Shown one piece after another: positions 42,001 through 51,000 of a DNA stretch of 64,000 nt. Within the stretch, counting starts at the first letter, position 1. Every line of letters starts with the position of its first letter. This DNA is from a candidate division WWE3 bacterium (GTDB lineage Bacteria > Patescibacteriota > 4484-211 > GCA-002791395), in assembly GCA_013335095.1 (NCBI GenBank), contig JAAXWF010000003.1:154048-218047 (forward strand), written 5' to 3'. The position numbers were made by a program.

Positions 42001-45000
42001 AGTTTTACCTATTGGGGCCCGGAAACGCGTATTCGGGCCCTAAGACCATTTAATTAACGTAACGAAAATAGACGTTGCCATTCATTTTTAGGGTCTTTTT
42101 TACGATTCTCAATAAAATATTCAACAATTTCTTTGGTTTTATCCCTGCTAATAACGGTAAATGACGGAATAACATACTCACTTCCACCTATGTATAACGT
42201 TATCGGTTCAAGTGCTAATGTTCGATCTACAGCCACTAAAGGGTCAAAAATCTCAGATGACTCAAGTATTTCAATATGAAATCCGTCTTTTTCGGGTGAA
42301 TACATTAAGAGTAATACCGGGTATTTATTATCTGTAAAACCGATACTAGAATCACCGGATCCAACGTTCCAGTATGTTTCATTACTATGAAGAATATGAG
42401 TGAAAAGCTCTATATTATCAATTAATTCTTTTCTTATTCCATCAGGGCCGGTGAAGTATGTATTCATTTTATTGATTACATTATGCCGCTACGTTTACAA
42501 ATGTTAAAGCGTATCCTTGTTTATTCGCTCGACCGGTTCTCCCAATACGATGTACGTAGTCATCATAACTTGCTGGTTCATCGAAATTTATAACATGGCT
42601 TACATCTGGAACATCAATACCCCGAGCGGCAACATCAGTGGCGACTAATATATTTGTTCGTCCTAATTTAAAGTCGTCCAGGGCTCGTTGGCGCTGATTT
42701 TGTTTTTTGTTTCCGTGGATAGATTCACTTCTGAAGCCTTCGCGATTAATATGCTTTGAAAGTTTCTCTACACCCCATTTGGTTTTTCCGAAAATAATTA
42801 CTTTATTGAATTCTGGTTTCTTGAGTAATTCGACAAGTTTTTGCATTCGGTCGTCTGAGTTTGAATACTTGATGACATCTTGATGGATTGTTTGGGAGGT
42901 TTCATGTGTTTTTACCGATATTCTAATCGGATTTTTTACAAACATATTAAGGATTTCATCAACCTCACGAGATAATGTTGCCGAAAAGAATAATGACTGT
43001 CTATTTTGAGGTAATAAAGAAATCATGTATTTAATATCTTTAATGAAACCGATATCGACCATTCGATCTACTTCATCAAGCACCACATTGGTAAAGGCAT
43101 TCATTTTTAATACCCCTTGTTGAATAAAATCTTTTAGACGTCCAGGCGTGCCGATAACAAATGCTGGATTTCGCAAAAGATCATTTTTTTGATGATGCAT
43201 GCCACTTCCGCCAATACACACGGCAGCATAGGTATGTGTTCCGCGTGAAAATGCTTTAAACTCTTGAAATACTTGATTTGCCAGCTCACGAGTCGGGAGG
43301 ATTATAAGTACTCGTTCACCAGGTTTATTCATGACTTTATCAATCATTGGGATCAAAAAAGCCGCGGTTTTTCCTGTACCAGTGTTTGCGATACCAATAA
43401 CATCTCGTCCTTTAAGAACCTCTGGAATTGATTGATCTTGAATTGGAGTTGGATTTACATAATTTCTGTTCTGAATGTTGTGTTTGAGTATTTGATGGAT
43501 AGGGAAGTCATTAAAGCAATGTTTTGGATCATATGCGGCAACCTCGACGTTTTCGGTCGGGGTATGTCTGTATTGAGCTATATTCGTTTGTGCTGAGGCC
43601 GGTTTTGCCGCTTTACCTCGATATTTGTTCCGGTTACTCTGTCCAGAGCCGTGTCGGAAGAACTTTTTTTGTCGCATGATTGTTTTCTACGGAAAGAATC
43701 AGAAGGCTTTCCTTAAAGTATTCAGGGCCGTATTGTGTTGATTGTACCAGAAATATCAAAGAATAACAACCTATAGTTTGTATGTGTTGGTGCTAGAGTG
43801 TACAATTAAACCGTGGATGTAACATGGCTAACTGATCACCATTATATTGAATCAACCAATTCTGATACGAACGATTTGATTATTATTTCGCCTGCCCGTC
43901 GTAAAGGAATTGACAGCGGCTTAATTACCCAACTATTTAATCAATCAACGTCTTTAAATTATTCTATCGTAATGTTTGATTACACCTATTTCGTGAATCA
44001 TGCAGAGCCAAGTGATGATTATGTAAAAGAGTATGAAGATCTGAAGAAGGTGGTAAAGCATGTTCGTCAAACGTATCCCGATAAAAGAGTGCATCTTATT
44101 GGTCATTCATTAGGTGGTGTGGTTTCATCATGGATGGCCAAAGAATGGCCAGAAGTTATCGCCTCAGTCGGAGTTTTTGGATACATTCCAGATAAGATTG
44201 ATTTTGGATCATACCAAGGTCGAGTCCATATTGTTCAAGGTGATTTTGATGATTATGGAGACGAAGTTCTGATCGCCAATAGTATGGAAGCTTTTGGTAT
44301 TCGTTATACGCTTGACATGGTGTTAGATGCCGATCATCTGTTTAGGGGTACGGGGTACGATACCGATGTGACTTATGAAGCTGATGCGGCGCGGATTATG
44401 CTGACTCGATTAAACGAAAGTATTGATTCAATCTCGAAGTAATTTTTACCTGTGTTTTTGTCTTTTAGTATGGCGATGCCCCCATTCAGCCATTGCGGCA
44501 AGTAGTGGTTGGAGTGATCGGCCATACGGTGTTAACGAATATTCAACTTTTGGTGGAACGACTGGGAACACTTTTCGTTTAATTAATCCATCTTTTTCAA
44601 GTTCCTTGAGTTGTTGGGTGAGCATCTTTTGGGTAACTCCATTAATCTCATTCCTAAGTTCACTGAATCGGTATTTTTGTTGGGATAATAGCCATAAAAT
44701 AATAGGCTTCCATTTTCCACCAATTACTTTTACGGTGATGTTTACTGGGGATTCATTCATGGTATTAAGCACTTATTATACTCGTATAGCTTCATAAGAT
44801 GAGTACTGTCTATTTAGAAGCTTAGTAACTTTAAATATACCGTATAGAAAATTTATTTTGCAATTGATATGAAAAATGAGCTGGCGTACGAGACATCTCG
44901 TGCGTCAGCTCTACTGTAAGATTAGGCGTTCATGGCATTACGCCACACGACGACCCATTTCGTATAGGTTGGAACTTCTCCGTCTAAAGTACCATGAAAG

Positions 45001-48000: not shown

Positions 48001-51000
48001 GATCACGTAAACGAGCTATGAATGTTGCAACCAAAATAAAAAATGCGGGTACCATTGAGGCACCCGCATAATTTCCCGTATTACTCTTACTGCATTGCCG
48101 CCAGATTTGCCCGAGCCTCGTCTAACTGTAGACGGGCCTTTGCGTGTCTGATCAGCGCCTTATTAACCGCCGTAAGACAGCCTACGGCAGTCATTTCGGC
48201 ATGCCGAACTTCGCGCTTAAGCCGAGCAACCTCTGCTCGTGTCTTAAGCTCTGAGGTTAGGCTAATTGGCAGTATCTCTGCCAAATCGTCGATGTCGGCG
48301 ATGGCGTGGAATAGTACCTTGGCCTCATCGAACCTGACCCAGATAACATCGGGAAGCCTTTTGATTCGGCCCTTCCGATACTTGGGTGCTGGGATTACGA
48401 GTGTCGCTCGTTCTGTGAGTACCTCAGCTAACGCCAATCGGATTTCATCCTGAAGTCCTTCCTGATCGATCTCTATCAGTTCATCTACCGTCGGGAGTTT
48501 AATCCGTCGGCAAACATACTGGAGTTCGTAGGTCGGACTCTGAACGGTAAGGTATAGATGGTTGTCCATCATATGACCTAACCCGGAGCGGAATGCATTT
48601 ATTCCACCAGCCTCCCTAACGATCATATCGATCTGTGCCATGAACTCCTCCCATAGATGTCTGGGAGTTTTGGGAGTTTCGGACATAGATTGTCCTCCAA
48701 TGTAGATTCCACCAATAATAGGCAGTGTTATTATACGACATTTGTGAATATTATGGGATTTAAAGGAAAGCTGCTGGTACGTTATGGGGTACCAGCAGTC
48801 GTTTTACACTAAAGATCAGTCATCGTCAGCCACATTGCCGGTAATGGCAAAGCGGTCAGCCGGGTTGGACCGTGCGAGCATGCGACCTGAGGTCGTGGTG
48901 ATCCGATTATCGTCAACGCACGTGACGTACTCGATCACCATGGTGTTGGTCTCGGGATACCCAACGCCCTTGGGTAGGACCAATTCCAACCCGATGATCA
49001 CCAGTTTAGCCGCAAGCCAGGTAGCGGCTGGCAGATATGCCGGTGTATAGGCCGGACCGAGTTGACGAAGGGCGATTATCGCCATGTGGCCCTCGGCCGC
49101 TTCGGAGAGCTTCCAGCCCTCATTGCGCTCACCAGTGGGAACGAGCAGAGTTCCGTTACATCCCGAGATGCGAATGGCCGCGTGTTCGGCAGCGTCCAAG
49201 TCCGTGGGGAGAAGATCGACCAGCAGTGAATTGCCGCTGATCCCGATTACGACACCGCGACAATTGCGGTTGACCTGGGGGACCCCAGTTCCTTGAAGGA
49301 TGGTGATTACATCGTAAGGGGTGAGCCCCTGTACAATTGCCACCTGCACCGGGACTGCGTCTGCCTCAATTGGGCGATCCACATTCATACGTGAGCCTCC
49401 TTAGTGTATGCCAGTTCGGCGTGCCTATTTTAACACTGGATATGTATGTTGACCAACCCTATAGCAATGATACAATTATAGTAGGCCTGATTCAGGAGCG
49501 AATAAAGGAGGCTGCTATGCAGTCCGCAACTCAGGTGAAGGATGTCCTTCGGGAAATCGAGAAGGGAGATATCGTGGCGGTGTTTGAAGCACCTCTCGAT
49601 GTCGCCAGTCGGTTTATCCTTATCCGGCGGGCCAGCTACTTTGAGCTGGCGATTATGCTCTCTGCGGAGAGCTGGGCAAGTACCAACGCCGGGGAATCCT
49701 GCCTTTCTTGTGGGGTCTGCGGGCATCAGGTCGATCTGACCGGCCTGCGGCTAATCTACATGGAAGGCGTCTGGAGGGAGCCCTTGGCCCAGATCATCGC
49801 GGCCGAGTACGAGCGCACGACCCATCCTCGGGTCGAGATGCTCGAGCTTGATCGGCGCGATGTTCTCGAGCTGCCGGACCGACATCGGCTCGTGTATGTC
49901 GATGTCGTCGGCGAGGTCTACTAAAGTAGACTAGTATCATCATTGCGGTAAAACCGCCCTGGTGATACTATCGACTAGCACCTAACATCGTGTACGCGTC
50001 GTTGCTCCCTTTAAAAGGGGCAGGAGGTCTGGTATGTTACACGGACCAATCACCACCTTGGAAGGGTGGGCGGAGTATGCCGCTGGAGGCGATCCTGATC
50101 GCCTGCGAATTCTCCAGGCTCGAATAGAGCTCGCTGAGCGCCAGGTTGACGTCACGCTTGCCGAGCTTCGTCGTGTCCCGGAGGTGCGTCTGACCACCCG
50201 CCAGCGGGTTGAGGCGGTTCCTGTGTATCAGGAGCCAGCCGCAGTCCGCGCGGCACGTATGGATGGTCGGCCAGTTCGCTGGCCGTTCGACGACTAATCG
50301 GCCTATCGGGCTGTGCCGTGGTAACCCCACCGCACAGCCCTTATTTTTATCCACACACCAACCTAACTACAGATTGACTTATTTATCTTGTTACGCTTTA
50401 CTTGAACCGCCATGAAAGTTTTGTCTCGACTCTTGAGCCATAAATTAATCAAAGCCGGCATGTGGGTAACGATCGGTTCAATGGTGGTTAATGTATTAAA
50501 TTATGCGTTCAACGTAATCATGGGACGGCTTCTTGGTCCCAGTTTATTTGGAGAACTCACGGCACTATTTAGTTTACTAATTATAACGAGTGTTCCTTCT
50601 TCAATTATTAATTTAATTATGAGTAAGCTTGCTGCTGAATATAATTCTCGAAAAGATTTAAACAGTTTTTCTACTGTTTACCGCGTCTCCTTGAAATATT
50701 CAATAATCACGAGCATTGTCCTTGTCATTATCTCGTGGATTCTTACGCCATTTTTGGCTAACTTTTTATCGGTGAATCCAATTCATCTGGTAATATGTGC
50801 ATTATTGTTACCAACTACTATTATTGGTGCAATTTATAACGGTTCACTTCAAGGTTTTCATCTATTTGGTCGAGCCTCGATAAGCTCAGTGATTAGTACG
50901 GTGATTAAATTAGTACTATCAATTACTTCGGTATATGCTGGATTTCGTGTTGGTGGCGCTGTAACTTCTGTATTAATCGGATCAATCATTGCGCTGATTT

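Follow-up and report, generated by a model that had tools for sequence, protein, structure and literature searches.

We analysed a window of 64,000 nucleotides (nt), by which we mean the whole stretch of DNA under study, from a 260-kb contig in a metagenome-assembled genome (MAG) labelled 'candidate division WWE3 bacterium', within the candidate phyla radiation (CPR, or Patescibacteria). The analysis centred on an island of seven genes rich in guanine plus cytosine (GC), designated A to G and lying at 44922-50297 of the window, in the region of the protein entries NTV31379-NTV31386. These genes belong to a class of at least 22 in the window, which differs from the ordinary genes in three linked respects: GC-type codons and amino acids, initiation from Shine-Dalgarno (SD) sites, and the folding of the mRNA. 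The reading we favour, with a probability of roughly 45%, is that they represent a maintained, lineage-specific and vertically kept class of stand-alone units, with selection keeping their transcripts G+C-rich, compactly folded and SD-dependent. Their GC-richness is probably a maintained state and not recently imported DNA. What is new here is that atypical composition is coupled to a distinct initiation mode and to folded mRNAs and is conserved across a deep divergence; full-text literature searches found no earlier description of such a gene class.

Composition, initiation and mRNA folding of the GC-rich genes

An earlier reading made from the sequence alone (the sequence-only reading) had described seven GC-rich genes surrounding an AT-rich one. 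All seven open reading frames (ORFs) were confirmed at the coordinates it gave, and six of the seven proteins are NCBI entries (NTV31379-81 and NTV31383-85). The GC content of the island genes is 0.51-0.63 and their GC content at third codon positions (GC3) is 0.52-0.82, compared with 0.392 ± 0.026 and 0.325 ± 0.037 (range 0.22-0.38) for 36 host-like genes of the window. Island GC3 thus exceeds the host mean by 5.4-13.3 standard deviations (7 vs 36 genes; Mann-Whitney p = 6e-8), and compositional analysis showed that the GC-richness noticed earlier is real and far beyond chance. The enclosed gene (46962-48071) proved host-like, as had been claimed, with GC 0.40 and GC3 0.33; it stands outside the GC-rich class and was used as a conserved neighbour and internal control. 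In the spacers between the island genes GC falls to 0.33-0.50, and composition changes over at least 14 times, precisely at gene borders. Codon usage in the GC-rich genes is shifted to both G- and C-ending codons, and amino-acid content is shifted as well. Translational selection was considered as a cause of the high GC3 and is unlikely, given that CTG and the G-ending purine codons rise together with the C-ending ones.

The island is not an assembly chimera, because the independent Logan assembly of SRR11449211 is 100% identical to the window over 20,264 bp and a contig from another sample, SRR21121620, repeats the junction between GC-rich and AT-rich genes. The sequence-only reading had also suspected that the island was part of a larger compartment, and this was supported by the at least 22 such genes counted in the window. 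Besides the seven, they lie at 15094-16149, 52683-54299, 55651-61548 and 62306-62860, interleaved with ordinary genes that include a flippase and glycosyltransferases of families GT2 and GT4.

Initiation signals separated the two sets of genes almost completely. An SD core (GGAG or GAGG, 3-16 nt before the start codon) precedes all 22 GC-rich genes and only one of 30 host-like genes (Fisher p = 8.5e-14), the lone case being an internal operon gene, the GT2 gene at 51688-52638 with SD AAGGAG. In each of the seven island genes the match to the SD consensus covers 5-8 nt and lies 4-8 nt before the start codon, so that the strong SD sites reported by the earlier reading stood up. The contrast with host genes of leaderless type, together with the excess mRNA structure described below, had been overlooked by it. 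A −10 box in the leaderless pattern (at least 5 of 6 positions of TATAAT, ending 4-12 nt before the start codon) was found in 12 of 30 host-like genes vs none of the 22 GC-rich genes (p = 5e-4), and no island gene has a −10 box adjoining its start codon. Examples of ordinary genes without an SD site, a type that often has the adjoining TATAAT-like box, start at 26086, 26700, 29364, 30525, 37324, 43813, 44772 and 46962. Judging from these start regions, much of the organism's gene set would seem to be expressed from leaderless mRNAs. The other CPR loci that we examined displayed no GC3 dichotomy and few SD sites.

The signals around the island genes suggest that each is a stand-alone unit composed of a predicted promoter, a leader, an SD site, a G+C-rich ORF and a predicted terminator. 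A search for −10-like boxes at 20-85 nt from the start codon gave a match to TATAAT at 5 or 6 positions in five of the seven genes, 34-66 nt upstream. For A the −10 box (TAAAAT, by eye) is some 31 nt from the ATG, and gene G has only a weak box (4/6, 45 nt upstream) and may be co-transcribed with F. Taken over all units, the best box of this kind is about 27-66 nt ahead of the coding sequence. A consensus scan gave fuller promoter-like sites for C, F, E and A, and a −10-like box only for B, D and G. A hairpin occurs within about 15-45 nt of every stop codon of the seven genes, several being followed by U-tracts, and folding of the 80-nt stretches 3' of the stop codons gave −18 to −30 kcal/mol. 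All of these predicted sites, from promoter to terminator, would be expected to work.

We next turn to mRNA folding, which was computed and expressed as a z score, with z < 0 denoting greater stability than shuffled controls. Against synonymous-codon shuffles, which leave protein and codon usage unchanged, z was between −2.0 and −6.5 (mean −3.8) in all 12 GC-rich genes scored, and the mean of ten host genes was +0.17. With dinucleotide shuffles, z was −6.66 for D and −5.43 for A (for both genes, none of 100 shuffles reached the native stability), compared with −0.04 for a host gene. Shuffles of 30-nt blocks keep the local composition, and under these the seven island genes gave −2.5 to −6.1, including −3.1 for B, −4.6 for C, −4.6 for F and −2.5 for G; E scored about −2.5 to −3.0, and the AT-rich gene among them +0.6. 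Extended to 22 GC-rich genes, block shuffles gave −1.7 to −8.8 (mean −3.66), and the 16 host genes scored in this way averaged +0.10 (Mann-Whitney p = 1e-7). The excess was stronger on the sense strand of the GC-rich genes than on the antisense strand (−3.66 vs −2.43; Wilcoxon p = 5e-5), a bias that is expected if selection acts on RNA, because G·U pairs count on one strand only. Native genes of 65-75% GC from other bacteria, scored by the same method, had locus averages between +0.2 and −1.7, apart from a single outlier close to −5; GC-richness alone is therefore not the source of the excess structure.

Perfect stems of at least 7 bp numbered 21 vs 7.4 expected and none exceeded 8 bp, so that long perfect palindromes were ruled out as the source of the structure and the excess is diffuse. 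No common anti-SD element that would sequester the SD and start region was found in the GC-rich mRNAs. Rfam searches returned only the tRNA-His at gathering thresholds, and the E-value mode gave a spurious island match on a terminator hairpin.

The members of the class outside the island were inspected as well. The isolated gene at 15094-16149 (minus strand) encodes a 351-aa secreted protein with internal repeats; its GC3 is 0.50 and its folding z −3.2, and the start codon is preceded by the SD site AGGAGG and, 41 nt upstream, by a TATAAT box. Three small GC-rich genes at 52683-53150, 53333-53710 and 53847-54299 (minus strand; GC3 0.46-0.60; SD TAAGGAG(G)) are wedged between the GT2 and GT4 genes, look like polytopic membrane proteins by eye and have no Pfam matches. 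On the plus strand, 55651-61548 holds ten small GC-rich, SD-led genes in a same-strand array, each with a promoter-like box and a negative folding z. Two pairs among them are paralogous, namely 55992/56669 and 59485/60562, both at 32% identity (E = 1e-10 and E = 3e-8, respectively), and the six array genes scanned (55651-59337) had no Pfam matches. One further ORF, at 24001-24438 on the minus strand (145 aa), fits neither class cleanly: it has an intermediate GC3 of 0.49 and a host-type start (TACAAT 7 nt before ATG, no SD), and it overlaps the 3' end of a VanY gene by about 115 nt.

Homologs and conservation in a distant relative

Homology searches with the island proteins were almost entirely negative. 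None of the seven had a significant match in Pfam, NCBIfam, PHROGs or PADLOC, which agrees with the earlier statement that they carry no recognisable domain, and PADLOC models of defence systems found no family for the seven genes or the gene for the secreted protein encoded at 46962-48071. Sequence searches of the PDB with A, C, D, E and F returned nothing below E = 0.4. The seven proteins are mutually unrelated. Searched against 5.8 billion proteins, E found only itself, and so did a profile of the secreted protein. Scans of JGI metagenomes with E and D alignments, scans of IMG/VR with D, E, A, C and F, and tblastn searches of all seven against phages or plasmids gave no match. Structure prediction added little: a model of D from a two-sequence alignment had a predicted local distance difference test score (pLDDT) of 58, which is of low confidence, with an alpha/beta N-terminal part and a long C-terminal helix, and a beta-rich single-sequence model of E (pLDDT 31) was too unreliable to be used.

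The informative match came from D. A phmmer search against 1.84 billion representative proteins identified a single homolog, the 201-aa protein P0012 (36% identity, E = 1.8e-19), whose gene sits on two short Logan contigs from runs SRR21121620 and SRR21121628. On the 2.9-kb contig L019, homologs of F, E, D and the secreted protein are found in the order and orientation of the window. Identity is 39% for E, 36% for D and 32% over about 300 residues for the secreted protein, and about 25-39% over these conserved proteins taken together. F and the divergent gene of L019 gave no BLASTP alignment; their Smith-Waterman score of 68, aligned from residue 1, compares with 26.8 ± 4.7 for 2000 shuffles (best 59), and the L019 gene is therefore a distant F homolog. 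The CLSCGVC motif of F is not kept in this homolog, and the extent of the divergence means that proteins of the F family change more quickly than E, D or the secreted neighbour. The F-like gene lies at 1-303 of L019 on the minus strand, and its GC3 of 0.81 is above that of F.

The layout of the units is conserved as well. The genes for the E and D homologs have promoter-like sites (TAAAAT or TTGACT-17-TATAGT), SD sites (GGGAGG or GAGGAGG) and hairpin terminators arranged as in the window. D and E align over their full length, and F over the recovered part of its homolog, all with few gaps, and no nucleotide similarity between the two loci is left. Therefore D, E and F are real protein-coding genes, because the proteins align with few gaps while the DNA is unalignable. 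Folding was also in excess in the relative for the F (z = −4.3), E (−2.4) and D (−2.3) homologs, and the homolog of the secreted protein gene scored +1.25.

Synonymous sites of the two loci are saturated, because at conserved residues the same codon is used about as often as chance predicts: 23 times vs about 19-21 expected in E, 24 vs 20-21 in D and 40 vs 34-39 in the secreted protein gene. Nevertheless, GC3 in the window and in L019 is 0.71 and 0.81 for F, 0.65 and 0.64 for E, 0.53 and 0.51 for D, and 0.33 and 0.38 for the secreted protein gene. According to the Lawrence-Ochman model, foreign genes are said to ameliorate toward host composition with residence time; full amelioration would give the host GC3 of about 0.33-0.38, which the GC-rich genes have not reached in either lineage. 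Since gene-specific GC3 persists past synonymous saturation in both lineages, the GC-richness is not that of an un-ameliorated recent transfer. The AT-rich secreted protein gene inside the block is equally diverged, and at least F, E, D and this neighbour would, on the evidence of the two loci, constitute an inherited block. An attempt to extend the synteny through the flanking flippase failed: its best related locus (32% identity) was in a Woesebacteria MAG, and no close relative was present among GTDB species representatives.

The island units, their neighbours and the HxlR-type regulator

The features of the island are listed in Table 1. The two polytopic membrane proteins (B and C) and the CLSCGVC motif that the sequence-only reading had picked out were all confirmed. 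Gene G, a putative coding sequence, was called in the Logan assembly only and is absent from the NCBI annotation. F has 135 aa at NCBI and 160 aa in Logan, and its SD site favours the 135-aa start. Standard gene callers thus appear to treat the GC-rich class inconsistently.

Table 1. Genes and predicted control sites of the island, in window coordinates (SD distances are to the start codon)
Feature	Coordinates	Strand	Description
TATAC-N1-2-GTATA copies upstream of hxlR	44777-44788, 44836-44846		third copy at 23919, inside a gene
Hairpin + U-tract 3' of A, between A and HxlR gene	44878..44911	-	-19.5 kcal/mol for the 80-nt downstream stretch
Gene A	44922..45362	-	146 aa, soluble, no known domain; GC 0.54, GC3 0.52; SD GGAGGTG 4 nt before ATG
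Promoter-like site of A	45393..45422	-	TTGACC-18-AAAAAT by scan; TTGACC-17-TAAAAT by eye
Intrinsic-terminator-like hairpin 3' of B	45444..45478	-	16-bp stem, then T-run
Gene B	45486..46019	-	177 aa, 4 hydrophobic segments (membrane protein); GC3 0.61; SD AGGAGG 5 nt before ATG
Hairpin 3' of C	46156..46184	-	13-bp stem
Gene C	46209..46817	-	202 aa, ~5 hydrophobic segments (membrane protein); GC3 0.82; SD AGGAGG 8 nt before ATG
Promoter-like site of C	46884..46912	-	TTGAGA-17-TATAAT, 11/12; −10 box 66 nt upstream of start codon
AT-rich surface protein gene	46962..48071	+	369 aa; signal-peptide-like N-terminus, P/T-rich linker, C-terminal anchor; GC3 0.33; no SD; −10-like TAGATT ends 6 nt before ATG (leaderless pattern)
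Terminator-like hairpin 3' of D	48043..48069	-	overlaps 3' end of convergent secreted-protein gene
Gene D	48087..48686	-	199 aa; GC3 0.53; SD GGAGG 7 nt before ATG
Terminator-like hairpin 3' of E	48771..48798	-	folding/consensus scan
Gene E	48816..49388	-	190 aa; GC3 0.65; SD TAAGGAGG 7 nt before ATG
Divergent back-to-back promoter-like sites of E and F	49427..49476	.	E (-) TGGTCA-17-TAAAAT; F (+) TTGACC-16-TACAAT; TG extension on both
Gene F	49517..49924	+	135 aa; GC3 0.71; SD AAGGAGG 5 nt before ATG; contains CLSCGVC
Hairpin 3' of F	49925..49976	+	-27.2 kcal/mol for the 80-nt downstream stretch
Gene G	50034..50297	+	87 aa, Arg/Ala-rich; GC 0.63; SD AGGAGGT 5 nt before ATG
Terminator-like hairpin + T-run 3' of G	50308..50340	+	folding

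It had been proposed that the HxlR-type regulator downstream controls the minus-strand genes as a unit. Although this gene (E = 1.4e-34 to PF01638) shares the strand of A and follows it at a distance of 149 bp, such control is highly unlikely: a hairpin with a U-tract stands between the two, every gene of the set has its own promoter-like site and terminator hairpin, and hxlR has a host-type start with TATAAT just before GTG. The palindrome TATAC-N1-3-GTATA (3 copies in the window vs 0.23 expected) was the only over-represented palindrome in the spacer upstream of hxlR, and it is absent from all island promoters. The two copies upstream of hxlR are a candidate autoregulatory operator. Another short element, the hexamer CTATAG, was examined as a recurrent promoter element and is not enriched, with 14 copies vs 11.3 expected in the window.

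The genomic setting is one of envelope and surface genes, including the flippase, GT2 and GT4 genes, a polysaccharide deacetylase, a 2380-aa Kelch/fn3 protein, and VanY and penicillin-binding-protein (PBP)-type enzymes. The 2380-aa protein is encoded at 2681-9823 (plus strand), with MacB-like ABC transporter genes after it; it has many Kelch repeats, fn3 and a domain of the purple-acid-phosphatase N-terminal type, and is probably a large surface protein of a presumed symbiont. At 22540-23346 (plus strand) lies a gene for an FmrO-type 16S rRNA methyltransferase (E = 1e-23), of a family known for aminoglycoside resistance. It overlaps the VanY D-Ala-D-Ala carboxypeptidase gene (23343-24116, plus strand), which is just upstream of the tRNA-His gene (24931-25007).

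Origin and meaning of the class

In the reading of a maintained class, selection would act on the transcript itself and favour compact, G+C-rich folding. Such folding could confer a long functional lifetime or resistance to RNases on the leadered mRNAs, and it would in turn demand a strong SD site to load 30S subunits. It was reportedly found by Mauger et al. in 2019 that structured coding regions lengthen the functional half-life of mRNA. The outcome would be a second expression regime beside the leaderless AT-rich genes, serving small accessory proteins (two membrane and five soluble ones in the island) whose units are scattered through the cell-envelope and glycosylation region. The three features of the class and its stationary GC3 would then be explained together. 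We infer that the GC-richness stems from selection on how structured or stable the mRNA is, and that the two initiation modes separate the expression regimes. In its widest form the proposal would be that one chromosome keeps two kinds of gene by selection, AT-rich, largely leaderless and unstructured ones vs stable, G+C-rich, folded and SD-dependent units, and we put this forward only tentatively.

Several points weigh against this reading. The folding is a computed prediction, and the region of the SD site and start codon is predicted to be as paired as the rest of the mRNA and not open, which is unexpected for efficient translation. The fraction of base pairs pairable between orthologs was 0.38-0.52 vs 0.34-0.39 in shift controls, so that the search for conserved specific RNA helices or motifs revealed a weak excess only, and the AT-rich control gene shows a similar one. 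It is structuredness as a whole that is conserved, and this might be a side effect of some other property. CTG, CAG, AAG and GAG are all raised in the GC-rich genes, which gives them the look of a GC-rich genome and is expected of foreign DNA, and GC3 within the class is heterogeneous (0.41-0.82). The anti-SD sequence at the 3' end of the 16S rRNA lies outside the window, SD sites having been scored on the consensus. Conservation is documented by one relative and a 2.9-kb contig covering F, E, D and the secreted protein gene. The ORFan status of the proteins carries little weight, because the host-like secreted protein and the flippase are also without close relatives. Finally, repeated or ancient acquisition of a mobile block that included the AT-rich gene is a possible, though rather unlikely, account of the same data.

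The alternative that deserves most attention is foreign origin, which the sequence-only reading had favoured: horizontal acquisition from one or more unsampled, G+C-richer, SD-using donors or from a CPR mobile pool, with their leaders and SD sites and with piecemeal insertion into a plastic envelope region. The relative would then be either heir to an old insertion or itself a recipient of the same block. In GC, GC3, codons and amino acids the genes do resemble a genome of 55-60% GC, the architecture of the gene starts is unlike that of neighbouring genes, the genes cluster by glycosyltransferase and flippase genes, homologs are absent or almost so, and the heterogeneous GC3 would be compatible with several donors. 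Deviating GC is routinely taken as proof of horizontal gene transfer (HGT), yet that interpretation failed the tests run here, and we consider it doubtful. The earlier reading had advised a search for the donor lineage and had counted homologs that are core genes in all relatives against foreign origin. No donor homolog was found for E among 5.8 billion proteins or for D among 1.84 billion, the sole match of D being the syntenic ortholog, and F, E, D and the AT-rich gene do have syntenic homologs in L019. Pfam scans of the island genes and 42 other ORFs of the window detected no integrase, transposase, conjugation or phage genes; the only tRNA gene (His, at 24931) is about 20 kb from the island, and no meaningful flanking repeats occur within 43.5-51.5 kb. 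Relatives among phages, plasmids and IMG/VR were lacking, too. At least 22 units in at least six blocks would require many precise intergenic insertions. The orthologs hold their gene-specific GC3 despite saturation, which contradicts neutral amelioration, and the interleaved secreted protein, at 32% identity, has diverged to the same degree as E and D, which makes the block look co-inherited. In addition, HGT alone would leave the sense-biased excess of mRNA structure unexplained.

The remaining alternatives are less probable. Moron- or cassette-like autonomous modules, left by a decayed prophage or plasmid or by a cassette-capture system, would account for units with their own promoter-like site and terminator hairpin and with a composition unlike that of their neighbours, and the small genes at 55.6-61.5 kb, unrelated or paralogous and all on one strand, are arranged much like arrays of this sort. 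We regard this as improbable, because the window ORFs scanned include no phage gene and none for an integrase or recombinase, no repeated recombination site exists and the hairpins have no common sequence family, PHROG, INPHARED and IMG/VR provided no relatives, and synteny is conserved in L019. GC-biased gene conversion at recombination hot spots, for example under diversifying selection, could hold GC3 high, in keeping with a GC3 that is stationary and gene-specific despite the AT-rich background and with fast-evolving proteins (25-39% identity). It is nonetheless very improbable: the effect would be far above those known to be reported in bacteria, the composition boundaries coincide exactly with ORF ends, the SD and leader architecture and the sense-biased structure are left unexplained, and the secreted protein gene is equally fast-evolving yet AT-rich. 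An artefact, whether a chimeric assembly of two organisms or spurious ORFs in G+C-rich structured non-coding DNA, is scarcely credible. In GC-rich DNA, long ORFs do arise by chance on both strands, the sequences fold strongly, no homolog vouches for the coding status of A, B, C and G, and G is unannotated at NCBI; against this, two assemblers agree over 20 kb and a different sample repeats the junctions, at least 14 switches of composition fall right on gene borders, the proteins D, E and F can be aligned where their DNA cannot, every ORF starts 4-8 nt after an SD site, and no Rfam family matches.

If the maintained-class reading is true, compositional islands within a genome would here be the signature of an RNA-level expression regime and not of foreign ancestry, a regime of long-lived or conditionally translated transcripts that is possibly tied to a life-stage of the symbiotic cell; the organism probably lives attached to other cells. 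GC-rich islands in at least some CPR genomes would then mark a selected transcript property, which would affect HGT inference, binning, decontamination filters and gene finding. The organism would also offer a natural system in which leaderless and SD-dependent translation operate in one cell on two cleanly separable gene sets, and it would hold a large reservoir of small proteins that evolve fast, encoded by roughly one in three of the window genes and adjoining envelope-glycosylation genes.

The class shares features with several known systems. Like acquired genomic islands, its genes are clustered, deviate in GC, codon and amino-acid content, encode mostly hypothetical proteins and lie in a surface and glycosylation region. 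However, their GC is above that of the host, whereas atypical genes are usually lower in GC than the host (PMC6028130). Islands differ further in that here mobility genes, a tRNA junction, repeats and a donor are missing, the GC-rich genes are interleaved gene by gene with host-type genes, their mRNAs have excess structure, and they are syntenic in a deeply diverged relative with gene-specific GC3 unchanged. The runs of small, mostly unrelated and sometimes paralogous ORFs, each followed by a hairpin, recall integron cassette arrays and orphan immunity arrays; in contrast to these, there is no integrase or recombinase, no shared attC-like repeat and no detected toxin or immunity domain. Integron cassettes are also promoterless, whereas most of the units here have a promoter-like site (a −10-like box only in B, D and G). 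Phage morons, associated with Hendrix and colleagues, are said to be autonomous promoter-gene-terminator inserts of deviating composition. The likeness lies in a predicted sigma-70-type promoter and hairpin terminator for each gene and in a composition unlike that of adjacent genes, but the genes studied here are not in a prophage, have no phage genes or phage relatives nearby, and are conserved at an orthologous chromosomal locus.

Selection on coding-region mRNA structure was reportedly described by Katz & Burge in 2003, and genome-scale ordered RNA structure in RNA viruses by Simmonds in 2004. The GC-rich genes resemble those cases in that folding beats codon-shuffled controls and in that overall structuredness, not particular helices, is conserved. 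They differ in that the effect (z of −2 to −9 per gene) is confined to one gene class of a bacterial chromosome and is coupled to a GC3 shift of 20-50 points. Genomes that mix leaderless and SD-led genes are known, too, as 'group C' of GeneMarkS-2 (PMC6028130), and the window fits this description, with a Pribnow-type box a few nt before the start in 12 of 30 ordinary genes and SD sites at 4-8 nt elsewhere. Full-text literature searches found no earlier description of a partition such as the one seen here, where the SD-led set of the window consists almost wholly of GC-rich, domainless genes (22, plus the host-like 51688-52638) and the initiation modes coincide near-perfectly with two composition classes and two mRNA-folding classes. 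The mixture of modes itself was already known, and it is this near-perfect coincidence of initiation mode with composition class that is unusual.

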